Virus record (IMG/VR): IMGVR_UViG_3300034018_000240
DNA length: 64,000 nt
From: a virus
Strand: one strand, 5' to 3'
Part shown: in pieces, positions 4,443 through 60,100 of the stretch
How the letters are laid out: each line of letters begins with the position of its first letter
How positions within the stretch are numbered: the stretch's first letter is position 1
The notes under the pieces: model-generated
The model's input: the letters and a program-made list of their open reading frames with translations, nothing else
What the model was told of the DNA's origin: nothing
Databases searched by the model: none
Translations under genes and position numbers: made by a program

Positions 4443-4444
4443 AA

Positions 4445-8697: not shown

Positions 8698-8716
8698 CTC
8701 GCTTACTAACCACACA

Positions 8717-10685: not shown

Positions 10686-10689
10686 AATG

Positions 10690-11097: not shown

Positions 11098-11119
11098 TGT
11101 TTTTCGTTTTAGGCTGTTA

Positions 11120-11570: not shown

Positions 11571-11601
11571 AATACCTCTCTATTAATTAAAGCTTTGATA
11601 T

Positions 11602-11844: not shown

Positions 11845-11907
11845 TATAGCATTAACTTTTATAATAACTAAAATAGTTATTTGTAGATCGTCCAGATATA
11901 CATACCT

Positions 11908-41559: not shown

Positions 41560-42426
41560 ATGGCTAAAACAGTAATAATAAGATTAACTTGCTCAGGTGG
41601 CAGAACAGGACCCTTTGATATCTCTGATAACTTAGGGACAGTCTTGGGCATTGACATTACTAAACAAGACCTTATTGATGGATATACTGTTAGTGTTGCT
41701 GACTCTGTTACTACAATAATTATAAGATCTAAAGGTAAGTGTTCTACTAGCATTAATGTTACAATTGGTACAGCTACAAAAGAACAGCTTGCTGCTTTAG
41801 ACTACACTGTATGTAACACAGGATCTATATGGAAGCATTTAGATGATACAATACATTATAACAAATACTATGGTAATGTAGAACCATACATAATTGAATA
41901 TCCATTTGCTTATCAAACCTATGATGAGATACTTCAGAATGTTAAAGATTATAGTAAGGTGTATAACTATATACCATCTGTAGATGGAGTGGTTAATGAA
42001 ACTGCTAAGATAGAGGTTGATAATCAATGGTTTAACAAAGCTGTTCTATATAATGGACAACAGTCTACAGGTATATTAGAACTTGTACCAAAGCCAATCA
42101 ACAACCTAAAACAATACTTAGCTTACCCAATATATAATGACTTTAGCAAGACTATCACTTATACTAAGTCAGATAACTTCTATCAATATAATACATTCTG
42201 GGGATTAGTTAAGAATAAATCATTACCTTTGTTTAGAACAAGTTGTGAGTCTTTATCAGTAGATAAGGTTGTAAATCAAGTGAATATGGATTATGGAAAA
42301 CGTTCATTTAAGAAAGAACCATTGAGAGCCAAAGACTTAAAGGTAAGACACATCCTTGACAATAGCTCTGAAGCACATATAGTTTCTCAATTCATTATTG
42401 CACCTGCTCAAATCTCTTATAAGTAA
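41560..42426 (+). CDS. TGPFDL family paralog 3 with extended C-terminal domain (288 aa)
   Basis: IRLTCSGGRTGPFDISDNLGTV...LIDGYTVSVADSVTTIIIRSKGKCSTSINV shares the same module. Confidence 0.55.
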   Translation: MAKTVIIRLTCSGGRTGPFDISDNLGTVLGIDITKQDLIDGYTVSVADSVTTIIIRSKGKCSTSINVTIGTATKEQLAALDYTVCNTGSIWKHLDDTIHYNKYYGNVEPYIIEYPFAYQTYDEILQNVKDYSKVYNYIPSVDGVVNETAKIEVDNQWFNKAVLYNGQQSTGILELVPKPINNLKQYLAYPIYNDFSKTITYTKSDNFYQYNTFWGLVKNKSLPLFRTSCESLSVDKVVNQVNMDYGKRSFKKEPLRAKDLKVRHILDNSSEAHIVSQFIIAPAQISYK

Positions 42427-45400
42427 TGGCTAACTGGTTAGACAAATATGAACAAGGAGGCTTAGTCTTAAAGAAAAAGACCAAGGATAACTATGGCAAG
42501 AAAGCTAATCCTAATGATGTCCAAGTATCTGTAGGTCCTGACTTTGTAGGACTTGGATATAACATTAAGGGTAGGGACTATTCTCCTGCATGGGGTGGGC
42601 GATTTCAGAATGGTGGATTCTTACAACCTAATAGTTCTAAATTGCCAGAAGGATATGTAATACCATATAACACTCCTAGCACTGAATTAGCTATGTCTAT
42701 AGGTGGAGAAAAAGGAGAACCAGCTTATTTAATTCCTTCATTTAAAGGTGGTAAGAAATTAAAAGATCCTATTGCTGAATATAAGAAGACAGGTGAACAT
42801 CTTGGTGGTCCATTTAAAACATGGCAAGAAGCTGAGAAGTTTGGTGAGATGAGACATGAATATGTAGAGAAAGGACAATCACTTCCTTCTCCATTGAAGT
42901 GGTGGGATGATATGCAAATGGGGGGATCTATGCCAGGTTCTGTAGGCTTCACGTACGCACGTGTAGCTGGCTCAGCTCCTGCTAATGGTAAGTATACTAA
43001 GAAGACAAAAGCTAGTGCTCAGAATGGTCAAGAGATGAAATTCTACCAAGAAGGACTAGACTTCAAACCTAAGAGTATAAGTCAAGATGGAAAAACTATT
43101 CCTAATGAGAAAGAGGAAATAAAACCAATTACAACTTCTCAAAAAAACATAGGACAAGCTGCAGCATGGAAAGTAATAGAAGCTATTAAAGCTAACACTC
43201 CATATCAATTATCAGAAAGTGCTGTAAAGTCTGGAATAGATCCATCATTAACATGTATAGGTGGTGTATGTAATGTCTATAAAGATTTAGGTGTTGACTT
43301 CTCTGGTGTAGGAAATGAAAAACAAGGTGTAAGAGAATCAAGAACAAAAGGTAAAGTAGTAGAATATAATCCAACATTTGATAAAAACTATAAAGCTGCT
43401 GGATTTGAAAAAGTAAAAGGAAGACCTATTGAATTTAATGAGTTAACTGATATAATACAAAAAGGAAACTTAAATCCAGGAGATTTTATACAATACTATA
43501 ATAAAAAAGGTATTCCAGATCATACTAATATTGTATTAGGTTCAAACCCTGATGGCAGTGTTGAGGTTTATAATTCATATAAACATGGACAGGTAACAAG
43601 AGGAGAAAGTAAAGAACCTTATGTATATACATTAAATCCTGAAGCACAAGACTATAAAGGTAAAAAAATTAATGTATTTAGAGTAGGTGATCAAAAGGCA
43701 ACAGAAATAAGAGATGCAAGTGCAAATGATCCAAGTGGTATAACAAACACTTGGTTTAATTACAATATGGAGAAGGCGATTCAAAGAAGAATGAAAATAC
43801 TAGAAAAGGATTACCAAGAACTTGCAAAACAAAGTGGTGAACCTGCTAAAAAACTAACTCCATCACAATTAAGAAAAGCTGCAATAGAAGAAGAAAGACG
43901 TATTTATGAATCAGATCCTATGTTTAAAAGAAACCTAGAGATAATAAATACAGTTGACTTTTCTGAATCTCCACAAGAAGCAATGTATAGAACATTGAAT
44001 AAAAAGAAAAATGGTGGATGGTTAGATAACTACAGTGAACCAATAAGAGATGACAGAGGACAGTGGGCTCATCCAGGTAAGATAACAGAGATAGGATCTA
44101 ACAATATTACAATGCAAGGGGTAGACTATCCTGTTCTTGGCATATCTGATACAGGTGATACACAGATGATGTATCCTGATCAAGATTATAAGTTTGATGG
44201 TGAAAAGGTTACAGAGTATCCAATGGCTCAAGATGGTGAGAACATTACCAAAAAACTGAAGAAAGAAGCTGAGGAGAAATTAGAAAGGATGAAGAAACCT
44301 AAGGCTACTCTATCTCAATATACACCTAAGAAAGGGGAACAAGCTAAGTTTGATAAACAGAAGTTACAAAGAATAGCTGAAGACAATGCTCCATTAAATA
44401 GAATGGCTGCTAGTAAGGGAGCTAAGAATATGCAAGATGCTATAGAAGCAGCATTGATAATGGAAGGTGGATTGGCAGCAAGTAAGCTTGTTGGTAAAGG
44501 TGCCAAAGCAGCTGCTAAATATGCTACAGAACAAACAGCCTTAAAGAATGTTTATAAGTTAAATCCATATGCATTTAAACCTACAGAGGGAATGATGTAT
44601 AGAGGTATTGGTAAAGAAGGAATGGAAGATGCATTACAAAGTGGTCTGTTTAGAGCTAAACAAAATGTAACTCCTACTAGTATAGGTAACTTTAATACTA
44701 CTAGACAATTTAGTAAAGCTTACTATACTCCTAGATTTGATATAGCAGATCAGTATGGACAAGGGTATATTGCTGAGGTACCAAGAGGAGCTTCTGACTG
44801 GGGTAAGAGATATGGTAAAAAAGAATGGAGTCAAATAGCTCAAAGAGATATACCTATAACTGAAGGTAAAGTTTTACAGAAAGATTGGTTAAAAAGATAT
44901 AAAGAAGTTCCTAAACCAACTGCTTCAGAACAAGTTGTAAGAGGTCCAATTCCTGCTCCTTACAAAGGAACAACTTTACCTTATGATAACATTGGATATA
45001 AGGAACCAGCAACAGGAGAACTAGCTCCATACATGACACCAGAGTTTGAAGCAATTCCATATAGTGAATTACCTAAAACTGTATATCATGGTGGTCCTAG
45101 TGTTATTTCAGACGCAGGTGCTATTAGAATAACTAGAGAAGGATTGCCTATTCAAAGTGCAACTTCTCCAACTTCAAGAGGATTCTATGCAACTCCTAAT
45201 ACTTGGATGCATATGGAAGGTTCTCCAAATCCTCTTAGAGATGTAGAAGGATTTTATCCAAAACTTGCTAGTGAGAATGCTGAAAACTATGCAATGGGAA
45301 GAGGGGATGCATACATACATGGAGGTGAGTTTGTTGAAAATCCTAGAATAGTTGACTGGAAAACATTTAGTCAAATGGAACCAGTTAAGAATCTTAATCC

Positions 45401-45593
45401 TGACTTTAGAAGACTAAGTCCTGAGGCTGCTAAAATAGCAGAAGATCTTGGTATATATGGTCTTAGAGATAATAGTGAATATAACATTCTTAATCCACAA
45501 AAGGTTTTTAAATCATTTAAACCTGCATATAAAAATCTGGGTAAAGGTTGGGAAAAATATAACAAAGGTGGCTGGTTAAACAAATATAAATAA
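42426..45593 (+). CDS. large virion (probably ejected) protein with CHAP/NlpC-P60-like cysteine peptidase (peptidoglycan hydrolase) domain
   Basis: 1055 aa. Candidate catalytic Cys in TCIGGVCNVYKDLG (about 43251-43271). Candidate His in NPGDFIQYYNKKGIPDHTNIVLG (about 43490-43530), followed by GSVEVYNSY, matching the Cys...GDhh...HVgI...N pattern. GGWL(D/N)(K/N)Y motif at N-terminus, middle and extreme C-terminus. Confidence 0.6.
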   Translation: MANWLDKYEQGGLVLKKKTKDNYGKKANPNDVQVSVGPDFVGLGYNIKGRDYSPAWGGRFQNGGFLQPNSSKLPEGYVIPYNTPSTELAMSIGGEKGEPAYLIPSFKGGKKLKDPIAEYKKTGEHLGGPFKTWQEAEKFGEMRHEYVEKGQSLPSPLKWWDDMQMGGSMPGSVGFTYARVAGSAPANGKYTKKTKASAQNGQEMKFYQEGLDFKPKSISQDGKTIPNEKEEIKPITTSQKNIGQAAAWKVIEAIKANTPYQLSESAVKSGIDPSLTCIGGVCNVYKDLGVDFSGVGNEKQGVRESRTKGKVVEYNPTFDKNYKAAGFEKVKGRPIEFNELTDIIQKGNLNPGDFIQYYNKKGIPDHTNIVLGSNPDGSVEVYNSYKHGQVTRGESKEPYVYTLNPEAQDYKGKKINVFRVGDQKATEIRDASANDPSGITNTWFNYNMEKAIQRRMKILEKDYQELAKQSGEPAKKLTPSQLRKAAIEEERRIYESDPMFKRNLEIINTVDFSESPQEAMYRTLNKKKNGGWLDNYSEPIRDDRGQWAHPGKITEIGSNNITMQGVDYPVLGISDTGDTQMMYPDQDYKFDGEKVTEYPMAQDGENITKKLKKEAEEKLERMKKPKATLSQYTPKKGEQAKFDKQKLQRIAEDNAPLNRMAASKGAKNMQDAIEAALIMEGGLAASKLVGKGAKAAAKYATEQTALKNVYKLNPYAFKPTEGMMYRGIGKEGMEDALQSGLFRAKQNVTPTSIGNFNTTRQFSKAYYTPRFDIADQYGQGYIAEVPRGASDWGKRYGKKEWSQIAQRDIPITEGKVLQKDWLKRYKEVPKPTASEQVVRGPIPAPYKGTTLPYDNIGYKEPATGELAPYMTPEFEAIPYSELPKTVYHGGPSVISDAGAIRITREGLPIQSATSPTSRGFYATPNTWMHMEGSPNPLRDVEGFYPKLASENAENYAMGRGDAYIHGGEFVENPRIVDWKTFSQMEPVKNLNPDFRRLSPEAAKIAEDLGIYGLRDNSEYNILNPQKVFKSFKPAYKNLGKGWEKYNKGGWLNKYK

Positions 45594-45613
45594 ATCATAC
45601 AATAGAGTATAAT

Positions 45614-48490
45614 ATGAAAGACCAAATATTAAAGATTGCTAAAGTAAAGTCTGAGAAGGAATTCTACAAGAAGTATCCTACAGAAGAAGCATTCATGAAA
45701 GTTCATGGTAAAGAGTTAAAGAAAGCTGCTATGGGTAAGTCTATGGTGAACAAACAGTTACACCAACTTACAGACTTTGGCAATCCTCCTAAGTTTCAAG
45801 GTGGTGGTAGTGCTAATGGAAATGTGCTAAATCTTATGGGTTGGGGAAATGCTCAACCTGCTGTACAACCTGCTACTTATAATAGCTGGACAGGACTTGT
45901 TGGTGGATCACAGAATGCTGCTGGACAAGAAGTAGTTACAAAAGCAGCTACAGATGCTGCATTTGGTGAAGGTGGTCTTCCTGAAGGTGCTGGTGGAGGT
46001 GGTATGGCAGCAGGAGTAGCAACAGCAGCTATTGGTGCATTGCCAGGAATCATAGGAGGTATCGAAGCAATTGGTTCACAAAGAAAAGCAATAAATAAAG
46101 CATATCAAGCTAGAGAGTTATCAGAACTAGCTTTACAAGCTGGCTCTACAAGAGAGAAAGTTAAACGTAAATATGTAAGACCAGAAGATAATATTGTACA
46201 GCCTGGACAGTTAGGTAATCCTTATGGATCAGGTACAAACTTCTTAGCTGAGAATGGTAGAATGATTGGTGGCAATCCTACAGAGATTCAGAACATGTAC
46301 AATCCTGGTGATATGTACACTGACCTTGGATTTGAACCAATGGGAGAAACATTGAAACAATTTAAAAAAGGTGGCAATCTTCCTGAAGCAGCATTTGGAG
46401 ATTACTTCCAAAGTTCTGGTCAAGCACAGATTGGTAGTGCTGCAGGTACAGCCATTGGTAGTATTGTAGGTGGACCATTAGGTGGTGCAATTGGTGGACT
46501 TATTGGTACAGTGGGTGGTAACCTATTAGGTGGTGCTAAAAATGCTAGAGAACTAGAAGCAGAGAAAAAGAAAGCTGAGATGAACACTCAACAAGCTGCG
46601 TTCCAACAAGCTCAACAAAATCAGTTTGGTGCATATATGGAGCAAGGTGGTAAGGTGGATGTAGGTGATGAATATAAGTGGGTTAGTCATACATGGCAAC
46701 CACAAACAATTGCTAAGTTTGGTGAGTATAATGTTAAAGACTTGTTAAAGCCTCCTCATGATGCAGATATGCTAAGAAGTGGTGGTCATTTAAAAGATGA
46801 GTATTATACACCTCCTAGTGCAGAAGCATTGTTTACTGGCAGACCTGAGCGAAAGCCTTTAACTATGCAACATGGTGGACAGATGGCTATGGGGGGTGAC
46901 TTAGAAATAATTGAAGGTGGTAAGGCAGAAACAATCTCTTATAATCCTTTCCTACCAGATGGTGGTGAGACAGTTATGTTTAAAGGAAGATCTCATGACA
47001 ATGGTGGCATTCCTATTAACTTTGGTGAGAATGGTGTAGAAGTTGAGGGTGGTGAACCAGCTGTTAAACTAAAAGATGGTGGTAAAGACAACAATATGGT
47101 TGTATTTGGTAACATGAAGATTGATAAAAACATAGCAGACCTTATGGGAGATCCAAAAGCAAAAGGTAGAAAGTTCAAACATTATGTAGCTGATATAGCT
47201 AAGAATGATGCAAAACAATTGAAAATAAGTGAGAAGGCTAATGAAAAAATTATCAATGCTGATAATAATAGTACAGCTGGTCATTTACAGTTAATAACAA
47301 ATGAACTTATAAAACAAGGAGCTGAAGAGTATCAAAAGATAAATGCTAAAAAGATTCAGGAAGCAGGTATTGTACAAAATGCTATTCTTGATACAGCTAG
47401 TCAATTAGGAGTTAAGAGTGACAAACTTGCTGAAGGTAAGCTTGAAAAAGAATATGACAAACGTATGATGGCTAAAGATGGTAAGAAATTAAAGAAGGCT
47501 CAAAATGGAGAGTATGAATATTTTGATCCTAAAAATAATTATTTAGAAGAAGAAATTAACACTTCACAAAATACTGGTGGTGTAATGTCTGGATATGATC
47601 AAAATATGAATTACTTTGATCAGTCAGGAAATCTAGTAGATCAATCTGGAGATCTTCCTAAAGCAGTTGGAGTAGCTGGAGTTGAAGGTGGAGGATTTGG
47701 ACAAGCATTAAAGTCATTAGGAAGTACTTTAGGTAAAGGGCTTGAGAAGTATGGTCCTAGTATCCTATCTAACATAGCTCCATTCTTAAGACCTAGTAAT
47801 GCTAATGAAGAATTATCTCCAGATCAATTATATCCTGAATACTTTGCATTGGCTACCAATCAGTTAGAACCTGTACAGGCTCAAACATTCCAGCCAATGT
47901 TAGATACTCCTATGGATATCTCTTTTAATGATCAGATTAATGCTATTGATGCTCAATCTAGAGCAGCCATTAGAGCAGCAGGTTCAAACCCAGCTGCCCA
48001 AGCAATGATTATGGCTCAGGCATTAGAAGCTAAAAACCAAGTGTTTGGAAATCGAGACAGAATCAATACTACAAACAAGATGCAGATATTTGATAAGAAT
48101 AGAGCAATGTTAAATGATGCTCAGCTTAAAAACTTACAAATTCTTGATAATCAATACGTTAGACAAGCTCAGGCTAGATCTAATACTAAAGAACAAGCAC
48201 TTAGTGCGTTAAGTTCTATAGCTGCTAAGACAGCACAACAAAGAGCTGCTAATAGACAATTGGCTGTTATGGAGAACATGTACAACTTTAGATTCACTCC
48301 AAGTGGTAGAGCAATTAATATGAATGCTCCTGCTCAGTTTAATATTCCTGGAGCAGGAGGGTCTCAAAAATCTACAGATGCAAAAGGAAATGATCTTCTT
48401 CCTATCTATAATAAGAAAGGAGACATTACAGGATATAAAGTCAAAGAAGCTAGACATGGTTCACTTGTAAAAGCTCTAAAAAATCTCTAA
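45614..48490 (+). CDS. large virion protein with glycine-zipper membrane-like segments (958 aa)
   Basis: AGGGGMAAGVATAAIGALPGIIGGIEAIGS and AAGTAIGSIVGGPLGGAIGGLIGTVGGNLLGGAK ((G/A)xxxG repeats). Many Gly-Gly dipeptides. Coiled-coil C-terminal half. Confidence 0.55.
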   Translation: MKDQILKIAKVKSEKEFYKKYPTEEAFMKVHGKELKKAAMGKSMVNKQLHQLTDFGNPPKFQGGGSANGNVLNLMGWGNAQPAVQPATYNSWTGLVGGSQNAAGQEVVTKAATDAAFGEGGLPEGAGGGGMAAGVATAAIGALPGIIGGIEAIGSQRKAINKAYQARELSELALQAGSTREKVKRKYVRPEDNIVQPGQLGNPYGSGTNFLAENGRMIGGNPTEIQNMYNPGDMYTDLGFEPMGETLKQFKKGGNLPEAAFGDYFQSSGQAQIGSAAGTAIGSIVGGPLGGAIGGLIGTVGGNLLGGAKNARELEAEKKKAEMNTQQAAFQQAQQNQFGAYMEQGGKVDVGDEYKWVSHTWQPQTIAKFGEYNVKDLLKPPHDADMLRSGGHLKDEYYTPPSAEALFTGRPERKPLTMQHGGQMAMGGDLEIIEGGKAETISYNPFLPDGGETVMFKGRSHDNGGIPINFGENGVEVEGGEPAVKLKDGGKDNNMVVFGNMKIDKNIADLMGDPKAKGRKFKHYVADIAKNDAKQLKISEKANEKIINADNNSTAGHLQLITNELIKQGAEEYQKINAKKIQEAGIVQNAILDTASQLGVKSDKLAEGKLEKEYDKRMMAKDGKKLKKAQNGEYEYFDPKNNYLEEEINTSQNTGGVMSGYDQNMNYFDQSGNLVDQSGDLPKAVGVAGVEGGGFGQALKSLGSTLGKGLEKYGPSILSNIAPFLRPSNANEELSPDQLYPEYFALATNQLEPVQAQTFQPMLDTPMDISFNDQINAIDAQSRAAIRAAGSNPAAQAMIMAQALEAKNQVFGNRDRINTTNKMQIFDKNRAMLNDAQLKNLQILDNQYVRQAQARSNTKEQALSALSSIAAKTAQQRAANRQLAVMENMYNFRFTPSGRAINMNAPAQFNIPGAGGSQKSTDAKGNDLLPIYNKKGDITGYKVKEARHGSLVKALKNL

Positions 48491-48566
48491 CTAATTAAGT
48501 TATAGTGAATTACTAAAATTTGTTATAGCTCTTGGTAATTCTAATATTTTAAATTAATTTTGTATT

Positions 48567-51161
48567 ATGGCATCGTTTACTGATAAATCCTTACAATTCA
48601 ACCCTTACATCCAAGAGCTCCCTGTGGAGGCCATGGTGCAAGTGGGCATGCAAAAGCAAGCCCAGTATGATCAAGGTGTGCAAAAAATTCAGAATGAAAT
48701 TGATCGAGTTGGTGGTATAGAATTATACAGACCCCAAGACAAACAGGTATTACAATCTAAACTCAATGAGTTAGGTAGTAGATTAAAGACTGTGGCAGCA
48801 GGAGACTTTTCTAATCAACAACTAGTTAACTCAGTTGCTGGTATGACAGGTCAAATTATTAAAGATGAAAACATCATAAACGCTGTATCATCTACGCAAC
48901 AATATAAAAAAGCTGTTAAGGAAAGAGAAGAATATCTAAAAGATGGCAAGACTTCTCCATCAAATGACTGGTTGTTTCAACAAAAAACTAACAAGTGGAT
49001 GAATGGAGATGTAAAAGAAACATTTAGTGGAGGGTATGATCCATACACAAACTGGAGAAAAAATGCATTAGATATTATAAAGGATCTCACTGGAGATTCA
49101 ACTATTACAGAAGAAGATTTTACAACAGTTGTTGGTGAAGATGGGAAACCTCAAGTGGTCTTAGCAGATGCTACTACAAGAACAAAACTTGCAGGTGTGT
49201 CTCCTGACCAAATCAAACAAGCACTATCTGTAGGTTTAACACCTGCTGATTGGAGACAGTTAGAGATAGATGGTGTATATACATATAGTAATGTTACTGA
49301 TCCTAATTTATTTAAAGAGAATGTTAATAGTGAATACTTAGATAAGTCTGAATACTTCACTAAACAAAAACAAGCTCTTGAGAATTCTTTAAGTTCTACA
49401 AATTCAAATGTTCAGAAACAAATGATTCAAGATAAGATAAATGGTCTTGATTCTACAATTAACAAACTTAATAAAGAAAGAGATAGTATATTAGGTCTTG
49501 TTGATAGAGGAGATTTGGAAAGAGCTAAGGCAAACTTATTTACTCTTAACTCTATTAACAACTTTGCTAAACCTTTCTCTCATACAGAAGTTGAGATCAC
49601 AAAAGAAGATAGTCCTGCAGCTCAAATGCAAATGCAAAGGGAAACAAAAAATCAAGCTTGGAAGATACATAAAGATAATATGTATTGGAAGTCAAGAGAA
49701 GTCAAAGCTGCAGAAGAGGCTAATAAAATAGCAAAGAAAACAGCAGAAGGATATGGTGCTTTTGCAGCTCCTGTAGATCAGGATACTCTTCCTAAATTAA
49801 CTGTTGGTGAACTTACAAGAACAACAGATATAGAGTTAGGTAAAATTAAAGATAGAGATGAAGCTTTTTTAAAGTCTCAAGGTAAAACTAAAGAATGGTT
49901 TGAACAACAAAGAGCTGCGTGGGAAACAAGACCTACAGGGGTTAGTCCTGTTGTAGCTAACTATTTTAATACTACAGAAAAAGAAAGAAGACAAGCTGAA
50001 GCTAATCAAGAATTAATATTAGATGTTAGAAGAAAGGCAGAAGCTGAACATGGTACAATAGATAAGCTTATTCCTAAAAATGCTCCTACTGTTACTTATA
50101 AAAAAGGTAATGAAGTATATCAATATACAGCTAAAGACTTTGTAGACTTTAATACAGTAGCATATAAATATAGAGGTACTGGTGGTGGTACAGCTCCAGG
50201 TGGAGGATCTGTTGTTGGTATGGCAGGAACTCCTGTAGCTTCAGCAGATGCTAAAGCTAGACAAGAGTTAAGTCCTAAGATGTATAACTTGTATAAGATT
50301 TGGAGTAAGATGCCAGCCAAGAGATATGATTCTGACAAGGTTATATTAGCTCAACTAGACAATTATGCAAAGACTGTAAATAAGCCTTATAAAGAAACCT
50401 TACAAAAGATTGATAAGACTATGGAAGATACTTTTAAAAATAGGATTTCTGTAAGTCAAGCTGCTGGATATAACATCCCTTCAATAACTCCTGCTCAAAA
50501 AGGAAGTTTAAAAAGCTTTTTAATTGCTGCTGCTGCTGCTGCTGAGAAGAGTGGTGGTAAACTTGCAGGCTCTCCTGATTTTAATGTTGAGACTGCTAGA
50601 GAAATTGCAGGATCAGAAAATCCAAACTTTTCAATAGATGTTGCTGAAGGCACTGAATTCCAAGAACCTTATTATAAAGTTACAGCTGTTGGTCCAGGAG
50701 GAAAAGCAACTAGTTTTAGATTAACTCCAGAACAAAAAATAGGAGGCTTTGGTACTCAATTTGATGATGTAGCATCACAACAACTAAGACCATATTTAGA
50801 TCAAATAAATAAAACAGGAGGAATGACCACTGCCAAAGATGGTAGTGCCAGGACAACTGTTAGCAATGCTTTCTTAGGTAATCTTGATTTTGAAAATGTA
50901 AGAACCTATGGTGTGAAAGCAAATATCATACAACTTAGTCCAGGCAATTATACACTAGGTATCAAAGCATATGATCCTATAAGAAGAAGTTGGACTACTG
51001 ATGAGATGTACTATCCAAGTGTAGGAAGTATGACTAAGGAAGGACTTAACATGGCTATAAAAAATATGAATGATAGTGAGATATTTAGATTGATAAATGA
51101 AAGACCAGCAACAGCTGGTGACTTACAAAAAATACAAAAAGCTTCTCAAAAACCTTTATAA
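48567..51161 (+). CDS. large virion protein of unknown function (864 aa)
   Basis: Long ORF, TAATG-coupled to the giant ORF downstream. Confidence 0.55.
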   Translation: MASFTDKSLQFNPYIQELPVEAMVQVGMQKQAQYDQGVQKIQNEIDRVGGIELYRPQDKQVLQSKLNELGSRLKTVAAGDFSNQQLVNSVAGMTGQIIKDENIINAVSSTQQYKKAVKEREEYLKDGKTSPSNDWLFQQKTNKWMNGDVKETFSGGYDPYTNWRKNALDIIKDLTGDSTITEEDFTTVVGEDGKPQVVLADATTRTKLAGVSPDQIKQALSVGLTPADWRQLEIDGVYTYSNVTDPNLFKENVNSEYLDKSEYFTKQKQALENSLSSTNSNVQKQMIQDKINGLDSTINKLNKERDSILGLVDRGDLERAKANLFTLNSINNFAKPFSHTEVEITKEDSPAAQMQMQRETKNQAWKIHKDNMYWKSREVKAAEEANKIAKKTAEGYGAFAAPVDQDTLPKLTVGELTRTTDIELGKIKDRDEAFLKSQGKTKEWFEQQRAAWETRPTGVSPVVANYFNTTEKERRQAEANQELILDVRRKAEAEHGTIDKLIPKNAPTVTYKKGNEVYQYTAKDFVDFNTVAYKYRGTGGGTAPGGGSVVGMAGTPVASADAKARQELSPKMYNLYKIWSKMPAKRYDSDKVILAQLDNYAKTVNKPYKETLQKIDKTMEDTFKNRISVSQAAGYNIPSITPAQKGSLKSFLIAAAAAAEKSGGKLAGSPDFNVETAREIAGSENPNFSIDVAEGTEFQEPYYKVTAVGPGGKATSFRLTPEQKIGGFGTQFDDVASQQLRPYLDQINKTGGMTTAKDGSARTTVSNAFLGNLDFENVRTYGVKANIIQLSPGNYTLGIKAYDPIRRSWTTDEMYYPSVGSMTKEGLNMAIKNMNDSEIFRLINERPATAGDLQKIQKASQKPL

Positions 51162-54100
51162 TGGCAGATACTCCTTTAATAGACAGGGCATTATTAGATT
51201 CATCATTGAATGATTATACACCTACTGAACTTCCTGAAAGACCTGCAAGTGTTCCTTATCAAAGCTTGCGAAGTCAATACGAAGGAACTGGTATTCCTAT
51301 GATGGATGGAGAACCTACTCCTACTGCATTAAGTGCTCTTGAGAATGCTGTATTAACTGCAGGTAGAAATGATGGTAAGAAGATGGCAGGTGGCATTGAT
51401 AGAACTTTAACAGAGGTAAGTAGTGATAGATATAAGAGCTTCATGCCTGGTGATTATAATAATGAAGATGCTTATGCTCAAAGTCAAAGTTGGGCTAGTA
51501 AAATGGTTAATGGTGTAGGTAAAGGTTTAGTTCTTACAGGAACTACTTTCTTACAATCTACTGTAGGACTAGTAAATGGTCTAGCTAACTTTGCAAACTC
51601 TGGAAGATTTGCAGATATTTATGATAATGACATGAATAGGTTTTTAGATGAGGAAGTTGTAAAGGCTTCTGAAAACATAATGCCTAACTATTATAAAGCA
51701 GGAGAAAGAGAACAAGATTGGTATTCTCCAAGTAAGTTATTTAGTGCTAACTTTATTTGGGATGGAGTTGTTAAAAACTTAGGCTTTGCTGCAGGTGCTG
51801 CATTGTCAGGAGGAGCATATGCTGCTGCTCTAAAATCAATCCCTCTTACAGCTAGACTGTTCTCAGTGGGTAAGGGTGCTCAAGCTTTAGCTGCTTCAGA
51901 AGAAGCATTGCTTGCTGCAGATAAAGCAGCTTCTACTTATGGTAAACTTAAAGGACTTTCTGATAAGTTTTTATCATCTTATAGCTCATTAGGTCAAGGA
52001 GGTAGAATTACTGTTGCAGCTTTAGGTACAGTGGGTGAGGCTGGCTTTGAAGCATACCATACGCTTAATGATTTTAGAAATAAAAAGATTGAAGAATATA
52101 AAGAAGCAAATGGTGGTCAAGCTCCTATGGGAGAAGATCTGTTAAAGATTAATCAACTTTCTGAAGAAGTGGGTAATTCTTCTTACTTTGCAAACGTTGG
52201 TTTATTAACTGCTACTAACTATATTCAGTTTCCTAAAATACTAGGAGCTACATACAAAGGGGAGAAAGGGATTGTTAATTCTCTTACAAAAGAAATTGGT
52301 GAAATTACAACAGACGCTACTGGTAAATATATAGCAGCTCCTAATAGATTTGGAAAAATCTTATCTACATTAAATAAGGTGAGACCATATACCTTCTCTG
52401 CTTCAGAAGCATTTGAGGAAGGTGCACAATACGCAATTGGCAAATCTACAGAAAACTATTACAATAAGAAATATAACAACGAACCAACTAATTGGTTAGA
52501 TGGTGTTGCTGCAGGAATTAGTGAAACATTAACTACTAATGAGGGTATGGAGAACATACTTATTGGTGGATTGTCTGGAGCATTAATGTTAGGTCCTGGT
52601 AAGTTTGGTGAAGCAAAAGAAAAGTCAAAGAATACACAAGCTGCTATTACAGAATTTAATAATGCTATCTTGTCTGACTTCTCTAAAGAAGTTAAAGGAT
52701 CTGTTAATAGAGGTACAACTATACAAGAGGAAAGAGAAACAGCAATAAGAAGAGGTGATATTCTAGAGAGCAAAGACTTAGAGCGTGATTACATAATCAA
52801 CTATCTAACTCCTCGTATTAAGTATGGTAGATTTGATCTTGTTCAAAGCGACATTGCTCAGTATAAAACTCTAGCAATGACTGATGAGGGATTTGCACAG
52901 TTACAATCAGAAGGTAAGGCATTAGATACAGATACTAAAGAAGCATATCTACAAAGATTAGCTAACTTAGAAGTTACTGCTCAGAACATTAAATCATTAT
53001 ATCAATCATTAGATGTACGTTATGGTGGGTTAGTAAATGCTGATGGTAAGCCTGTCTATTCACCAAAGGTGATGGATCAGATGATATATGCTGCAACTAA
53101 GGTGGCAGACTATGATGAAAGACTTCCTCAATTAATGACAGTGTTAGATGCTGTAGGTATTGATACTACTACTGTTGTTAATGACTTAACTAATGGAGAC
53201 AGTGATTCTTACATAGCAGCTGTTGAAAAAATTAAGGCATCAAAGTCTATTAATGAAGATGAATTAATGCAGACATTAGAAGATGTTGCAGAGCTTGCTT
53301 TGCGTAGAGACAACTTCTTGTTTGAATATAATGATATAAAGAACAATCCTAGTAAGTATGACACTGCAGAAACTATGGATAAAGATGCTCCAAAGAAAGA
53401 AACTGTAAAAGTTAAGACTAAGGATGGTGAAGAAGATATTGAAGTAGATACAGAATACTACTTAGGTAGAACTGTTAAGTATGACAAAGATGGTAATGAG
53501 GTTTATGGATTTCCAAGATTAACTATCCTTGGAGAAAATGAAGATGGTACTATTAAGATTAAGGATTCTAATGGTGTTGTAAGAGACATCTCTAAAGAAG
53601 AATTAGCTGGCTATAAATTAGGCAAAGTGTCAGACACTTTAAATAATAAAAAAGCCAAATACTATATGGAACATAGTAACACTGTGTTTCAATTTAACTT
53701 TGGTAAAGGTAAGAAAGTTAAAGGTAGATTAGAATACTCCCCTAAAGATGGAGTATTAAACTTTGTGTACAGAGACACTAAAGGAAAGATTAAATCTATT
53801 GAGGTTACAGGTAGTCAATTTGTAGCTCAAGAAGGATATGATGTTCCTATGATTATGGCTGTTGGTGAACTTACACCAATTCAAAAACAAGCATTAGATG
53901 AATTTGTTAGTTTAAAAGAATCAAAATTTTCTGCTAAAAGAGAAGCTAGATTAAAAATACTAAATGACATGTTTGATGAAACATCATCAAAGCTAATGTC
54001 TACACAAAAGTTATTAGAACAAAAATACAATGAACTTGAGAAGATAACAGGCGATCTTACTAATGTTGAAACCAAGCTTAAGGCTGGTGAGATGACTAAG

Positions 54101-57100
54101 AAGAATGCGTTCAAAAAAACCACAGCCAACGCACTTAGAGCTGCAAGTAAATTATCTAAACTAAGAGATAAGTTAATTGATGAGATTAGAGAATTAGAAT
54201 CTCAACAAGAAGAACTTGAGTTTACACAAGCTTACATTGCTGACATGGTTCAGAATATAGGTGAGCTTCCTGCAGAAAGTGAAGACTTTATCAATGAATT
54301 AAAAGAACAAAAGTCTCTTGTTGAAGATTTAATATTAGATACTGGTAAAAATATTAATGCTTTGTCTAAGCTCTTAACTAATGTTGAGAAAGCTTTAGAT
54401 ACTGCTGTAGATTTGGCATTAGATCTGATTAAGAAGTTTGAAGCTAAATATCCAAACTTACCTTACACTCCATTAGCTTTACAAGAATATTTGAATGCTA
54501 ATCCAGAAGTTAGAAGAAATAACCCTGAATTAATGTCAGACTTAATTGAGTTTGAAAGAGATCTTGCCAATATTGATGAGTTAGATGTAACTCCTAATGA
54601 ACGCAGTGTTGCTGAATTAAGAGAAGAGTTACAAGGTTTACAAGATCAGTTAAAGGAATATGAGCAAGACTTAAAAGCTAGAGAAGCAATTTTAACTAGA
54701 TTTCAAGATGTTGCTAAAGCTTATAAGTTACAGAAAGAACAAGAGAAAAAGTTAAAGAGTGATGGTAAACTTATTAATGCAGTTATTGGTACATTAAGTA
54801 AGGAACAATTAGACAATACTCCATATAGTGTTAAGTACGAACCTACTTCTAAGAAAGGTCCAAAGATATTAGTTACATCTACTGTTGCTAGTAAGAATAT
54901 ATTAGGCTATGCACGTGCAAATTACTTTGGTAATAAGTTCAACTCATTCCCTAATAAGAATAATATATTTGGTGTCTTAGTTACTTCTGCAAATGAAGAC
55001 AACATTATACCAGGACTTACTTCATATTTACAGAACAACAATACAGACATAGATCCAACAAAAACTATTGCATTAGTAATGGTTGAGGATCAAGGCAATG
55101 GTAACTTTGTATTGGTAGGTCAAGATGGGCAACCTCTTGCAGAAGGCCAAGATAAGTTAGAGAATGCTGTATTCCAAGTAATGCCTGACGAGAGTTTACA
55201 ATGGGGTCCTGACTTTGGTAATGAAACAATGTTCAGAAGCAACACACCTGAGCAAACTAGAAAAGAGTTAAAAGATCAATACATTGCTTTCAGAAATGAA
55301 ACATTAAAAGATCCTGCTGTTAGATTACAATCAATCACTCCTTCTTTTGGAAGACCTACTAGAGTTAGTATTACATTACCTGATGGTAAGAAGGTTACTG
55401 ATCCAAGTGCTGCTGTGTCTGTAAAGGCTGCTGGATTAATTGAAGACAAAGACTTAGTTGAAAAGCAGTTAATTGAAGTGCCTACTGTTGCAAAAGATAT
55501 TAGTAAAGGAAGCACAGAGTTTACAGATGTGCTTGGTAGAATATTCTTAGTATTAGATAATGCTTATGTTAAGTTAAAGAACAGACTGTTCAATACTAAA
55601 GAAGCTGAAACTATCTATGAGGTTCTTAATCAATTATCTAACAATGTGTTTGATGATGGTGGTGTAGAAGCTAGAAGTGAATATTTAATTGACTGGTTAA
55701 GAAGTGTTACATTCTGGGGCAAACCTAAAGAAGGCAAAGACCCTGGTTATAATAGTATATGGTTTGAGAGAGCAGATGGTGAATTAAGATTGTTCTTCTC
55801 TGGTAAAGGAGAGAGTCTTTCTTTTACACCACAAGCAATGGAAACTCAGAAAGATGCAATTGTCACTCTTCTACAAAACATGTACAATAATGTTAATGCT
55901 AGAAAGGTACAAAACACAGATGAATATAATTTAACATATGAAGAAATCATAGGTATTGGTGAGAATGGTATTCCACAAACAAAAGAATGGCAAAACTATC
56001 AAACATATTTGTTATCAGATGAGGGAAGAACAGCTGATGAGATTCCTTTGTTTACTGATATTACTGCGTTAGAATCTCCTGAAGATACTAATAGAGAGGG
56101 TGTATACTTTACACTTAGCGATGCTGCTGACAACTTTACTATTACAGAGATAGTTAGAACTGTGCCTAAGACTGTTGTTCCTGGTGGCATTAAGCCTACA
56201 GCTGCAACACCTGTTTCTGCAGAAGAAGAAACATTTACTGTAGGAGAAACACAAGAAGCTCCAATAGAAACTAAGACTGGTTCAAAGTTTGTATTAGATG
56301 GTAAGACTAAGAATATATTTATTACTCCAAAGGGAACTAGAATAGCTTTCACAGCTAATCGTAATTTATTGGCTAAAGGAGATATTGATAATGGTATTAA
56401 GATATTAAAAGGAGAAGACTTAGCTAAAGCTGAGGAAGCTTTAATTGCTGCAAATGTTAAGAAGGAAGATATGGGAAGAGCTTTAAAAGCTCCTATTGCT
56501 AACTTCTTAAATGTACCTGTACAGAAGGCAACTGCTGTAGAAGAAGATGAAGAAGCTTTTGCAATACCTGATGAAACAGATGCAGATGATGTAGTAATAG
56601 AGATTGAAGAAAAGGCACCAGCACAAATTACAACAAAGGGCCCTAGTGTAAGAAGTGGTGCTATAAAAGAAGCATTATTAGAAGATGAAGATGGAGACTT
56701 ACGTGAGATATTAGAGAATGAAATAAAGACATTCAAATCTGAAAACTGGAAGAAGTTAGAACAATGGTTAAGAGCTAATCTACCTAACGTTCCTGTATAT
56801 AGAGTGAAGAATGTTATCAAAGCTACAGGGGGAAGAAAGGCTTGGGGTATGTATAAGAATGGTGCTATCTATGTATACACTAATGCAGAGGCTGGGACAA
56901 CATATCATGAAGTGTTTCATGCTATCTGGAATATGTTCTCTGACCCTAAGGAACGCAAGGCTATTGTAAATGAATTCAAGAATAGAAAGGGCAGCTTTGT
57001 AGATAGAGTTACAGGACAAGAAGTTAAATACTCAGAAGCAACTCCTGGTCAAATCAAGGAACAACTAGCAGAAGAGTTTAGAGAATATGTATTAGATAAG

Positions 57101-60100
57101 AAAGTTCCACCTAAGCCTGCTGATGGTAGACCTTACATCATTAAGTTATTTACTGATTTAGCAAACTTTATTAAGGAATATTTCTTAGGTCCTCAAGCTG
57201 CAAGAAACACAGAAGAGTTATTTAAGAGAATAGGAGAAGGTTATTATAAGAACGCATCTCCATATCAGTCTAAGTTAGCATTAGCTAAACCTGGTATTAT
57301 TGATGTTGAAGATGCTATAGGCGACCCAACTAGTGAGTATAGTTTAATTGCTAATGGTCTTACAGGAGAACAAGTACATGATACTATTCAACAAATGACC
57401 TATTCTACTCTTACAAATCTTATTGCTACTAATCAAAGCCTATTTGATATCCCTGCTAAGAACAGAGCTGTAATATATAAAGAAGCTAAAGATAATCTTA
57501 AGTATACAGTTGTAGATAAGATTAAGAACATTGCTGCTAAACTAATGAAAGAAGGTATTGCTACAAAAGAAGATGTAGCTCCTGAGGTAGCAAAAGCTGA
57601 GCAGTTGTTTGCAATCATAGATAAAAACTGGGATGAGATAACTCAAATCTTTGAAGAACAATTATTATCTTATTCTATTGAATTTGATGAGAATGACAGT
57701 ACTCAAACAACAAATGAGAACAATACAGGTAGAGGAGACTATCAAGAGTCAGAGAAAATAGACAAGTTTAAGAAGGCTAACGCTGCTATTAAATTATTGT
57801 TAGCTACCATTCCATACAGAAATGCAAGAGGTAAAAGAACACTTTCTTCAATCAATGGTGTTAGATTAATACCAATGAGCAAGGTGTATATAGACCTTAA
57901 GAATGCTTTATACAACTCAGATACAGTAGATGATATGATGGAAAAACTACGTGAGTTTGTAGAGTCTCAAAAACCTGAATATGGTGTAATATACCAAAGA
58001 CTTACAGGACAACCTTCTTCTGAGAAGTTGAATCCTTATGCTAATATAAAAACTGATGCAGATCTTCAACTGGTTACTTCTTTCTACAATGTAATGAAGG
58101 GACAAGCTCCTGACGTGGTTACAGTGTACACAGCTCCTGATGGAACTGTAGTGACAACTGATATGTCTGTAGGCACAGCATCTAAGCAAATTGCTATTGA
58201 TATGGAAAACAGTATCATTAGCTCTATACAAAAGAACTTAGGAAAGTACTATAGATATGATGCTCCTAACAAAATGTACGTAGCTATTAAGAAGAACATT
58301 GAGAATCAACAGTTAGGATCATTAGAAAGAAGTGTATTATTTATGAAGTCTTTAGGAGTGGATGTTCCTATTAGAATGATTAGAAGACTTGGCTTTGAAT
58401 CTGACTTTAACAAAGCTGTTGCTGGTATAAAGAAGAACTTATTAGAAGCTGAGCAGATTAAGTTTATTTCTAGTAAGACAATTAACACTGCAGGTAGAGT
58501 TAAGGAGATTGCTGACATGCTTGCTAAGATTCAAAATCCTGACTTTGAAAGTACATATTTTAACCTTGAAGGTGATAGAGTACAGTCTTTCATAGGTGGT
58601 AATGCTATTAGTAGCTTACGTGATTTCTTAACTAAGATAAGCAATAAGAAACAATTAGTTGGCTCTAGATATGAATACTTACTTACAGATAACTTTGCTA
58701 ACATTGGTTCTGTATTCATGGACAAGATATTTGATAAAGATTCAGGAAACAAATTACCTAAGGGTGATGAGATATTAAGCACAGCGTATGCAGGTGGTAT
58801 GATTGATGAGGGTCTTGGCAAAAGAAAAGACCCAGCTAGTCTTACACCTAGTGAGCGTTTGAAGGAAGAGTTAAACCTTAACCTAGCAGGATACTATATG
58901 AACCTTGTTCCAGGAGATGCCTCTTTGGACTGGGCAAACTATGTAGGTAATACAGTTACATTAAATAGTTTAAAGAAAGACAATAGCTCAATACATAAAG
59001 TATTTAAAGGATACTTCTTGTCAGAGTTAGCTGTTTCTAGAGAAGGTCGTAAGATTGTACAAGATGAGAACGAGACTAGAAAGTCTACAGACCTGCGTTT
59101 CTTCAAGAATATATTAGGACCATCATTACATGAAGATATTGTATCATATGATCCAAGCAAAGAGAAATCTCTTGAGGATGTTTACACACACTTTGAATCA
59201 AGAATAAACACTGCTATAGACGCATTTGTTAAGAAGGATATTGAGAGAAGAAAAGCTGTGTATTCTAATTACAATATTCTTTCTGAAGATGAGAATGGTT
59301 TTAACTTTAATGGAGTGGAATTTGAAAAGAAAAGATCTTTAAGTGAGAATGATGTTGATGTGAATATCAAGTACTTATCTGTTAACTATATGATTAATAA
59401 CATAGAGTTACATAAACTTGTATACTCAGATCCATATTTCTACAAAGATGAATTGAAGCGTATTAAGAGTTTTTTATCTCCACGTCAGGCTATCATATAT
59501 GGTTCAGCAGGTTTAAATGCTGTAATGAATAATGTATATAATGATGACTATACAGATATTGATGATCTTGGATACACTGACTTCACAGCTGACTATTTCA
59601 AAACCATCACATTAGAGGATGTCAAAGGTGTAGCAGATGTAGAAGGATTTGCTAAAGAGTATTCATCATTCACTGAAACAGATGGTGGTGGTATGATTAG
59701 TATGCAAGCATATCGCAACTTTAGAATACGTGCTTCAAATTGGAACCCTAATGAGGAAAGACAATACAGATATGATGTTGCTTTTGAGAAAAGAGACAAG
59801 GGTCAGGACCTTTCTCCTAATGAATCAAATTTATTAGAAGCAGGCAATCCTCAAGTAAAGAGTGCATACACTCCATTGAAACCAGTTGTAGCTGGGGCTA
59901 AGATGAGTAAACAATCTTACAATGATGTTGTATTAGATAAGTTTGCCCTTTATCCATTGAGTTACAGAGTGTTACATGAGATTAATAAAGATTCAAATGC
60001 TATCAAGTTATACAACAAGATGCAGAAAGATAAGATTGACTACGCTGTATTTGACAGTGGTAGAAAGGTGGGGGCTGATGTATTAGTTAAATTATATGAT

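Follow-up and report, generated by a model that had tools for sequence, protein, structure and literature searches.

A probable cargo block of a crAss-like podovirus with a mosaic, cassette-bearing protein

The virion block and its gene order

The window analyzed here, a 64,000-nucleotide stretch of viral DNA (IMG/VR record IMGVR_UViG_3300034018_000240), holds a virion module of the Crassvirales type, in which a crass-fold MCP, a P22-like portal, and ring and muzzle proteins lie in one block, with Pfam matches that all exceed the gathering scores (Crass_capsid, 1.3e-27; P22_portal, 5.9e-17; CrAss_Ring_1, 1.4e-08; crAss_MUZ, 7.6e-30). Three ORFs of 1055, 958 and 864 aa occupy positions 42426-51161, after the crass muzzle gene and before a giant, virion-RNAP-like ORF of 4145 aa (51161..63598), just as an earlier, sequence-only reading of this DNA had placed them; we denote them P1 (42426..45593), P2 (45614..48490) and P3 (48567..51161). 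Directly upstream of P1 lies o288 (41560..42426), an ORF of 288 aa with an invariant length; all these genes, and hence the features within them, are on the + strand. Identical or near-identical copies of the P1, P2 and P3 proteins are carried by many metagenomic contigs, so the three can be taken as real genes.

The same reading had the three genes tightly packed and co-translated. The packing is indeed tight, with spacers of 20 nt between P1 and P2 and 76 nt between P2 and P3, and with TAATG stop/start overlaps at the o288/P1 and P3/giant junctions, but co-translation is no more than a possibility, and P1, P2 and P3 do not overlap one another. Promoter-like and terminator-like sites show no excess. 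The gene order, namely, ring, muzzle, (o144), o288, P1, P2, P3, RNAP giant, is kept across 80 viral contigs, and fibre-like genes are located upstream of the cargo block. The CV of protein length in the syntenic loci is 0.51 for P1, 0.17 for P2, 0.06 for P3 and 0.01 for o288, the last of these spanning 287-301 aa over 71 loci. The C-terminal part of phrog_15100 matches o288 and its N-terminus matches the muzzle protein; o288 is probably a muzzle-associated piece.

The presence of P1, P2 and P3 in the virion is suggested by synteny and, for P3 and a P1 scaffold segment, by MS-confirmed distant homologs in Cellulophaga phage phi4:1. On balance, we consider it probable that the locus encodes the cargo, or ejection proteins, of a crAss-like podovirus found in environmental metagenomes, and that the P1 scaffold carries swappable payloads.

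P1 is a mosaic on a small scaffold

The P1 family comprises more than 817 homologs with patchy coverage; across 72 syntenic relatives, the proteins in this slot vary in length between 193 and 2042 aa. P1 has a mosaic architecture around a common scaffold of about 200 aa that consists of three parts (M1, M3 and M5), and the shortest family member, of 193 aa, is this scaffold alone. Segment M1 (aa 1-66; 42426..42623), which begins with MANWLDKY, is shared by about 100 of the top 120 homologs and by 54 of the 72 slot proteins; M3 (aa 159-229; 42900..43112), with the border motifs SAQNG and SQDG and with residues that are invariant across homologs, by 69 of the 72; and M5 (aa 532-606; 44019..44243), the best-conserved part of the family, by about 120 of the 120 homologs and, again, by 69 of the 72 slot proteins. 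The full-length AF2 model of P1 is mostly low-confidence or disordered; in it, M5 appears as a beta-rich mini-domain of six strands at pLDDT 70-80.

Passengers enter this scaffold at three positions, and their borders carry GGWL[DN]KY, AQ[ND]G or x[ND]GG. The motif W[LIVM][DNES][KNR][YF] occurs 153 times against 0.6 expected and is restricted to P1-slot proteins, and GGW[LIVM] occurs 138 times against 1.2 expected, these proteins being homologous, so that neither count represents independent events. One relative, P0004, has an insert with AQNG at either end. Gain and loss of cassettes are recent, being seen between phages that share 95-97% identity in the ring and o288 proteins.

Four passengers are present in the phage at hand: M2, an NlpC/P60-CHAP-like domain with a helical arm, M6 and M7. 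The optional M2 (aa 67-158; 42624..42899) is found in about 65 of the 120 homologs and 17 of the 72 slot proteins, and is missing from P0002, a 97%-identical relative. M6 (aa 607-842; 44244..44951), found in 13 of the 72, comprises a helical linker followed by a domain of about 125 aa with invariant Arg, Asp, Ser, Arg, Tyr and Glu (alignment A7). M7 (aa 843-1045, with a C-terminal GGWLNKYK; 44952..45590) is limited to close relatives, 13 of the top 120 homologs. Pfam gave no match for M2 or M7, and neither PDB nor Pfam yielded one for M6. An ADP-ribosyltransferase was considered for aa 716-842 and rejected: hhalign against the ART-PolyVal segments of sister proteins gave 0.6%, and no Pfam or PDB match was found. 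The spacing from R726 to S739 is, moreover, atypical for an ART.

The papain-fold cassette (aa 230-433; 43113..43724) is the passenger with the clearest assignment. The Cys-His module of CHAP/NlpC-P60 type that the sequence-only reading discerned in P1 corresponds to a predicted papain-like alpha+beta fold with an intact predicted triad, Cys277 (43254-43256), His366 (43521-43523) and Asn383 (43572-43574). Conservation of the Cys and His among homologs, a check named beforehand, came out clearly: C277 is kept in 17 of 17, H366 in 16 of 16 and N/D383 in 16 of 16, as read from the sequences. The helical extension that follows (aa 434-531; 43725..44018) accompanies the cassette in homologs and ends in NGG, directly ahead of WLDNY; AF2 gives helices at cassette residues 211-301. 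Compared with NlpC/P60 and CHAP hydrolases (clan Peptidase_CA: PF00877, PF05257, PF12671), the P1 cassette thus has an added N-terminal helical part and an added C-terminal helical arm of about 100 aa, and is embedded in a large predicted virion protein.

By P1's own score, no Pfam family reaches the gathering score for the cassette, the match to Amidase_6 (E 0.011, 16.3 bits) lying below the cut-off of 23.2; among the 17 cassette homologs, Amidase_6 matches 6 (best E 5e-5), CHAP 5 and NLPC_P60 1, and the best match in the PDB profile search is the CHAP domain of LytN (E 0.077). Foldseek ranks papain-like protease toxins and C39 peptidases first, albeit weakly (E 0.03), so that a proteolytic or deamidase role keeps some probability: rather than a peptidoglycan hydrolase, the cassette could be a cysteine protease or a deamidase, with host proteins as its substrates, or could process P1 itself at the double-glycine borders, although we regard this as unlikely.

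The sequence-only reading suggested wall degradation by P1 within a complete entry system; a digestion module that is a fixed part of such a machine does not survive the comparison, the NlpC cassette being present in 1 of the 72 distinct P1-slot proteins and in just 20 cluster representatives among 1.84 billion proteins, and absent from near-isogenic relatives. Other relatives contain ADP-ribosyltransferase, histidine phosphatase, Amidase_2, YkuD, zincin-like or unassigned cassettes. Precomputed Pfam matches on relatives include PF18760, PF03496, PF00300 and PF01510; His_Phos_1, ADPrib_exo_Tox and YkuD are matched as well, and P0051 combines ART-PolyVal and Amidase_2 in one protein; most cassettes, including M6 and M7, have no function assignable by profile or structure-database matches. 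Since the NlpC cassette is so rare and the other relatives carry other cassettes, digestion of the wall appears to be an optional payload rather than a fixed step, and P1 is better seen, from these sequence comparisons, as a mosaic that carries interchangeable enzymes than as a protein for degrading the wall.

P2, P3 and the giant ORF beside known ejection systems

P2, a core protein with 2218 homologs, most of them full length, contains the two long glycine-zipper tracts that had been noted previously, at aa 125-156 (nt 45986-46081) and aa 264-308 (nt 46403-46537), both uncharged, with 33-38% Gly, and both kept in the family alignment. Eight of the 10 GxxxGxxxG starts in P2 fall in the second tract, where they overlap within 45 uncharged residues (33% Gly); the first tract reaches a Kyte-Doolittle maximum of 1.71. 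P2 accordingly has repeated GxxxG in an uncharged hydrophobic stretch of membrane-spanning length, the hallmark of PF13488-like glycine-zipper segments; the match of Pfam Gly-zipper_Omp to P2 (E 0.0011, 19.3 bits) is under the cut-off of 25. The family alignment further reveals an invariant central block (46895-47203), and the conservation profile a variable insert region after KAQNG (47492-47863). P3, the other core protein, has 2065 homologs and is divided into a conserved N-terminal part of about 350 aa (48567-49616) and a fast-evolving C-terminal half (49617-51158): in BLAST comparisons over the loci, the N-terminus aligns in 65 of 65 and the C-terminus in fewer than 10%, the C-terminal forms being still homologous by profile (97.9%, at 15% identity).

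The RNAP-like character ascribed to the giant was upheld. Its N-terminus is similar to gp47 of ΦcrAss001 (BLAST E 1e-36) and another part to gp50 (E 1e-12); the ORF also has a zincin motif, HEVFH (56906-56920), of the HExxH form that is absent from P1, and the gp50-like part includes DFDID (61016-61030; aa 3286). A giant virion protein with the DFDxD motif described for crAss-like virion RNAPs (bioRxiv 10.1101/2020.03.07.982082) is therefore encoded downstream of the cargo genes.

The closest positional counterparts of P1-P3 are the ΦcrAss001 cargo proteins C1 (gp45) and C2 (gp46), which are encoded at the same place, after the muzzle gene and ahead of the RNAP-associated giants, and which, by the published proposal, leave the particle first and form a trans-envelope channel (Bayfield et al. 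2023, PMC10172136). There are three cargo genes here and two in ΦcrAss001, and the RNAP parts, unlike those of ΦcrAss001, are fused in a single 4145-aa ORF. The claim that the domain composition differs from that of described crAss cargo proteins stands for P1 and P3, for which hhalign detects no similarity to gp45 or gp46, but is less secure for P2. The two families align in the TM region only (hhalign probability 58.8%, E 9.4e-5), where the Gly-rich N-terminal region of gp45, with its one predicted TM helix, faces the second glycine zipper of P2; in so Gly-rich a segment, the score may partly reflect compositional bias. Similarity to the portal-bound domain of gp45 (residues 425-552) covers 60 columns at 35% identity and is not significant (E 0.15); further weak matches are collinear. 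P2 may thus be a diverged counterpart of C1/gp45. The gp46 family gives no indication of homology by hhalign (P3, 0.8%; P1, 0.2%; P2, 0.1%), gp46 and P3 having in common only the position directly upstream of a gp47-like ORF. The authors of the ΦcrAss001 study remark that cargo sets vary, and in the portion of that article considered here, neither a hypervariable cassette carrier nor an NlpC/P60 domain is found for the cargo (PMC10172136).

A like layout is seen in Cellulophaga phages phi4:1 and phi17:2 (Lightbulbvirus), where a muzzle-like giant, three proteins of 740-975 aa and giants follow one another (gp039-gp042), annotated from MS/MS virion proteomics. The likeness does not extend beyond some 60-325 residues, at 23-36% identity, and the homologs that bear on virion location are 25-36% identical over parts of P3 and P1: the P3 N-terminus matches phi17:2 gp040 and phi4:1 gp039 (hhalign 95.7%), and M5 matches residues 29-85 of the virion protein phi17:2 gp041 (84.5%, E 7e-6), at the N-terminus of gp040/gp041. 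No P2 homolog was detected in these isolates, which, unlike P1, give no sign of modular variation.

Internal virion protein operons expelled ahead of DNA are known also from T7 (gp14/gp15/gp16) and N4 (gp52/gp51/gp50), whose ejectosomes include proteins that insert into membranes and one muralytic domain, that of T7 gp16; the N4 set also has a giant virion RNAP (PMC13434306). With hhalign values of at most 1.7% between P1, P2 or P3 and T7 gp14, gp15 and gp16 or N4 gp51 and gp52, the likeness is functional and positional only. The muralytic domain of T7 gp16 is a lytic transglycosylase; it is fixed there, whereas in P1 the corresponding activity would come from an optional cassette, and the N4 ejection proteins are devoid of any muralytic domain.

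A different parallel is offered by the polyvalent proteins and MuF-type toxins, multidomain, virion-packaged proteins that contain unrelated enzymes (ARTs, peptidases, lysozyme-type) and whose injection along with the DNA has been predicted (Iyer et al. 2017, PMC5512222); crAss-like phages are not mentioned in that work. ART-PolyVal (PF18760) is common to polyvalent proteins and to sister proteins of P1, but the three-part scaffold and the border motifs are particular to P1, and no Pfam match to MuF, portal, SNF2-methylase, ArdC-N or MPTase modules was found in P1 or 39 slot relatives. Polyvalent proteins have at least two disparate enzymatic domains; sister P0051 does as well, and the window's P1 has one that can be assigned (NlpC/P60).

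Possible delivery of payloads and its implications

In the scenario that we favor, P1, P2 and P3 would be packaged inside the capsid and the lumen of the tail, from which they would exit before the DNA, as proposed for C1 and C2 of ΦcrAss001. The glycine-zipper helices of P2 would enter the host membrane, and P2 would help build the conduit; P3 would accompany the RNAP giant, the conserved N-terminal domain serving as a virion anchor and, speculatively, as the fast divergence suggests, its C-terminal half contacting host components. The P1 scaffold would be the packaging and ejection handle, with mostly disordered Gly-rich linkers that let P1 thread the portal, and the NlpC/P60 cassette would cut peptidoglycan peptide stems locally in the periplasm. 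Relatives would deliver their other enzymes instead, tuning entry, early host takeover or counter-defence. In its fullest form, which we put forward tentatively and at a low probability, the P1 family would be a polymorphic effector-delivery platform following a logic like that of Rhs, CDI and MuF toxins: interchangeable payloads on the packaging/ejection scaffold would be bracketed, each one, by GGWL[DN]KY and AQ[ND]G motifs that act in processing or docking; the zincin domain of the RNAP giant packaged alongside might, for instance, cleave there, such that several independent enzymes are released into the periplasm and cytoplasm at injection.

The mosaicism of P1 could, conversely, reflect adaptation to the host surface, as in tail fibres and tail-tip lysins, if P1 were an external or tail-tip protein, that is, a virion-associated lysin or a host-range determinant. 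We find this quite unlikely: the ADP-ribosyltransferase and histidine-phosphatase cassettes of relatives act inside cells; Pfam detects no fibre, beta-helix, Ig or collagen modules in P1; the long, low-confidence Gly-rich linkers recall the cargo protein gp45; P1-P2 fusions exist; and the fibre-like genes sit upstream. Improbable, too, is a conserved inject-digest-perforate-transcribe machine in which P1 digests the wall and P2 forms the channel, together with P3 and the giant, for all that the papain fold with its conserved predicted triad, the glycine zippers of P2, the operon-like packing beside a virion RNAP and the precedent of T7 gp16 (an ejected protein with a muralytic domain, by annotation) speak for it, because a muralytic-type cassette is rare both in the syntenic slot and globally, near-isogenic relatives do without it, most relatives hold unrelated cassettes or none, and a conserved digest step would require a further enzyme.

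Returning to P1 as a carrier of payloads, the overall scheme, in which ejected cargo precedes a virion RNAP and makes a channel, is not new, as it has already been published for ΦcrAss001 and N4 (PMC10172136, PMC13434306); what is new in the present locus is P1 as a slot for cassette exchange on a shared scaffold. The crassviruses, together with their environmental relatives, count among the most abundant phages, and their co-injected proteins are largely uncharted, ΦcrAss001 being the sole case examined. In a large clade, with more than 800 P1, more than 2000 P2 and more than 2000 P3 homologs, cassette exchange has a hot spot in one of the cargo genes. Even if P1 is no carrier, three formerly nameless genes, core and accessory, can be annotated as predicted virion genes. 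If it is one, the locus provides a rule for harvesting candidate injected effectors, namely, to extract whichever gene follows the 288-aa ORF and precedes that of the glycine-zipper protein, and to split it at the GGWL[DN]KY borders, and names a source of the muralytic activity in some podoviruses that is absent from N4-type ejection proteins. And if P1 proteins do form a delivery platform, the cassettes without a Pfam match, which number in the hundreds, would constitute a large, untapped reservoir of enzymes of entry, host takeover and anti-defence in environmental crAss-like phages.

Organization of the structural module and the giant ORF

The window covers a crAss-like phage structural module: a P22-type portal (15808-18396), the Crass major capsid protein (20365-21918), CrAss_Ring_1 (34634-35605), the crAss_MUZ muzzle (35532-41093; E 7.6e-30), two small ORFs, o144 (41115-41549) and o288 (41560-42426), three large ORFs, P1 (42426-45593, 1055 aa), P2 (45614-48490, 958 aa), and P3 (48567-51161, 864 aa), and a giant ORF of 4145 aa (51161-63598), the last four on the plus strand. 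The order ring, muzzle, (o144), o288, P1, P2, P3, giant recurs in nearly all of the 80 IMG/VR contigs that were recovered with the P2 profile, and proteins identical or nearly identical to P1, P2, and P3 are present in many metagenomic contigs of ~77-118 kb. The tight packing of the three ORFs, noted already in the sequence-only reading, is borne out: spacers are short (20 nt between P1 and P2, 76 nt between P2 and P3), TAATG stop/start overlaps join o288 to P1 and P3 to the giant, and scans detected no excess of promoter-like and terminator-like motifs over shuffled expectation. On these grounds, the packing of P1-P2-P3 is operon-like, and the three genes may be co-translated.

The giant, which the same reading had described as RNAP-like, indeed appears as such. 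Its identity is based on BLAST matches to ΦcrAss001, according to which it fuses one part resembling gp47 (E 1e-36) with another resembling gp50 (E 1e-12), together with a DFDID motif at aa 3286 (61016-61030); crAss-like virion RNAPs carry DFDxD as their catalytic signature (bioRxiv 10.1101/2020.03.07.982082). A HEVFH zincin motif lies ~1370 aa upstream, at aa 1916 (56906-56920). BLAST did not detect a gp49-like part in the giant, and phmmer against PDB returned nothing at E <= 0.01. In relatives, the giant spans 3769-4303 aa.

Several features of the surrounding genes deserve mention. The length of o288 is nearly constant (287-301 aa in 71 loci), and o144 is optional among relatives. Because the N-terminus of PHROG 15100 matches the muzzle and its C-terminal ~200 positions match o288, the latter looks like a split-off piece of the muzzle. 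The muzzle ORF as listed shares 74 nt with the ring gene (35532-35605); given that relatives' muzzle is called as 1845 aa and that BLAST to one relative begins at residue 9, the gene probably starts 8 codons downstream of the listed position. A 632-aa ORF with collagen triple-helix repeats (27208-29106; Pfam 1.2e-28) and a weak match to the Peptidase_S74 intramolecular chaperone is probably a tail fibre. GC skew and AT skew both reverse sign at ~10000-12000, where minus-strand genes (976-11199) give way to the plus-strand structural module.

P1, a probable mosaic carrier with optional cassettes

P1 has more than 817 homologs, and a BLAST map of the best 120 of these resolves it into near-universal scaffold segments, namely, M1 (aa 1-66), M3 (aa 159-229), and M5 (aa ~540-606), the last being the most conserved of all, and optional stretches: aa 67-158 in about half of these 120 homologs, aa 230-540 in ~15-25, aa 610-842 in ~60-85, and aa 842-1055 in 13. 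The length of the 72 distinct proteins that occupy the P1 slot varies from 193 to 2042 aa, with a CV of 0.51, compared with 0.01 for o288, 0.06 for P3, and 0.17 for P2 in the same loci. The shortest member, 193 aa, consists of M1, M3, and M5, beginning with MANWLDKY and finishing with GGWLNKYK. Cassette content differs even between phages with ring and o288 proteins 95-97% identical; one such near relative has neither the optional cassette M2 nor the NlpC-type cassette, and a protein from a near-isogenic relative (P0004, L198:8992-12567) carries an extra insert of ~295 aa (residues ~205-500) with a HELAH zincin motif, AQNG at both ends, and weak matches to eCIS_core and Peptidase_M48.

Short motifs mark the cassette borders. 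In the 72 P1-slot proteins, W[LIVM][DNES][KNR][YF] was found 153 times vs 0.6 expected from shuffles, GGW[LIVM] 138 times vs 1.2, and [AS]Q[ND]G 129 times vs 3.6, counts that, being taken from homologous proteins, describe a feature of the family rather than independent events. P2, the giant, and the muzzle contain no copy of the first motif; as a group, these border motifs are specific to P1 and strongly enriched there. Long variants contain up to five GGW copies, spaced roughly 350-800 aa apart in one locus (L083). Some relatives (P0370; consensus of alignment A6) have, before the first GGWLDKY, an additional zinc-ribbon-like N-terminal segment of ~40 aa with the pattern CxxC…CxxC.

The payloads recognized by Pfam in relatives are ART-PolyVal, ADPrib_exo_Tox, His_Phos_1, Amidase_2, YkuD, and DUF6973; most of the cassettes have no Pfam match. 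In P1 itself, aa 716-842 include a set of invariant residues (Arg726, Gly729, Gly732, Asp735, Ser739, Gly740, Arg743, Tyr777, Glu784, Trp821, and Tyr825) and match nothing in Pfam or PDB, and aa 843-1045, limited to close relatives, likewise have no Pfam match. An ADP-ribosyltransferase-like identity of these two regions was rejected, with the ART-PolyVal segments of sister proteins at 0.6% in hhalign and no Pfam or PDB matches.

The cassette at aa 229-540 is the one for which a CHAP/NlpC-like Cys-His module, and hence wall degradation, had been proposed. An exhaustive HMMER search of 1.84 billion proteins with this stretch recovered only 20 cluster representatives, many of them stand-alone proteins of 230-400 aa. 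Cys277 is invariant in the cassette alignment, all sequences covering position 366 have the His there (His366), and residue 383, one strand after His366, is always Asn or Asp. Individual members weakly match Amidase_6 (6/17), CHAP (5/17), and NLPC_P60 (1/17), and among PDB sequences the cassette profile best matches CHAP domains, those of LytN and lysin L2 (E 0.08-0.9). The outcome that the sequence-only reading had named as refuting, a Cys and His unconserved in homologs, did not materialize, and the fold claim stands. The cassette may, alternatively, be a non-muralytic cysteine peptidase: the top Foldseek matches, obtained with a model of the cassette only, are papain-like protease toxins and C39 peptidases, if weak ones (best E 0.03). 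That model took the place of the full-length P1 AF2 model (pLDDT 38.7), which is mostly of low confidence, with helical and beta islands, and unusable for fold search, albeit compatible with a protein that would thread through the portal. As for the CHAP/NlpC-like module as a wall-degrading step, the fold stands and the fixed place in a conserved machine does not: since an NlpC-type cassette is present in 1/72 syntenic P1-slot proteins, this module is best regarded as an optional, putatively wall-degrading payload of a modular carrier.

P2, a candidate membrane component, and the two halves of P3

Most of the 2218 homologs of P2 are full length. The two long glycine-zipper tracts reported for it (aa 125-156 and 264-308) are real: both are hydrophobic, uncharged, Gly-rich, and conserved in the family alignment, and a role of P2 as a membrane-inserting component is plausible. 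In every one of 72 loci, aa 151-600 and 751-900 can be aligned; the variable regions are aa 51-150 and the stretch after KAQNG (~627-750). In profile-profile comparison with the 36-member family of gp45, the ΦcrAss001 cargo protein C1, P2 278-352 matches gp45 129-216, which covers the predicted TM helix and the following helix (58.8% probability, E 9.4e-5), and weaker matches downstream are collinear. An invariant block of P2 (…GRSHDNGGIPINFG…VEVEGGEP…VVFGN…) is 35% identical to the portal-bound domain of gp45 over 60 columns (E 0.15, not significant alone). We rate the chances that P2 is the counterpart of C1 as roughly even.

In some phages, P1 is not a gene of its own: its N-terminal scaffold is fused directly to P2 in an ORF that reaches 1787 aa (P0214 in alignment A3; L037:10001-15364). 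This fusion links P1 and P2 functionally and suggests joint action.

P3, with 2065 homologs and no hydrophobic segment, combines halves that evolve at different rates. Its N-terminal ~350 aa align in 65/65 loci; BLAST aligns the C-terminal ~500 aa in <10% of the loci, and at least five clusters of this part are unlinked by BLAST. In the one pair of forms compared by profile, the C-terminal form of the window and the largest alternative cluster align over 406 columns at 15% identity (hhalign 97.9%). Because such divergent forms are still homologous by profile, P3 appears to be a single protein, conserved in its anchor and fast-evolving in its other half. The C-terminal half (49617-51158) keeps its length at ~15% identity between lineages with ring and o288 proteins 95-97% identical, and its divergence suggests that alleles were replaced or that evolution was very fast. 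A match of the P3 profile to colicin Ib (PDB 8iom_A, E 3e-4) at aa ~250-370 (49314-49676) was dismissed: 0/39 members match Pfam Colicin, there is no hydrophobic hairpin, and this region yields only generic helical-bundle matches, so that the borderline similarity is probably of this generic kind.

Probable virion cargo and relationship to known ejection systems

No DNA similar to the window was found in deposited phages; for P1 and P2, these phages yielded neither near-identical DNA nor a tblastn match, and the profiles of both retrieved nothing meaningful from PDB sequences. The one line of evidence for a place in the virion is indirect and comes from Cellulophaga phages. The N-terminal ~325 aa of P3 match phi17:2 gp040, a 'virion structural protein' equivalent to phi4:1 gp039 (tblastn 3e-6, hhalign 95.7%), and M5 matches residues 29-85 of phi17:2 gp041 (hhalign 84.5%, E 7e-6). 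The Cellulophaga locus has the same layout, with a muzzle-like giant (phmmer 4e-100 to the window muzzle), three proteins of 740-975 aa, and giants, and the GenBank record notes give experimental MS/MS proteomics as the basis for annotating phi4:1 gp038-gp042. We consider it very likely, from homology and gene order, that P1, P2, and P3 are virion cargo or ejection proteins. The earlier proposal of an ejected entry machinery thus survives in its general form, without the fixed inject-digest-perforate-transcribe machine that it envisaged.

Such an entry scheme is a known concept, encountered here in a new clade. In ΦcrAss001, the order is muzzle gp44, cargo C1 gp45, cargo C2 gp46, gp47; the authors of that work (PMC10172136) propose a trans-envelope channel formed by gp45 and gp46, which would be ejected first, and state that crass families differ in their cargo sets; a 2026 paper on N4 (PMC13434306) draws the analogy between crass cargo and the N4 gp51/gp52/vRNAP ejectosome. 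No homology was detected between P3 and gp46 or between the P1 scaffold and gp45 or gp46, and none of the proteins has a sequence relationship to T7 gp14, gp15, or gp16 or to N4 gp51 or gp52. Conceptually, P1 comes closest to the 'polyvalent proteins' and MuF-type polymorphic toxins (PMC5512222); none of their hallmark modules is present in P1, which has a scaffold and border motifs of its own. Searches of the accessible literature retrieved nothing relevant on the WLDKY motif or on a variable crass cargo protein. Thus, the overall scheme has already been described for crassviruses, and what is new is the cassette architecture of P1 and the apparent two-speed evolution of P3.
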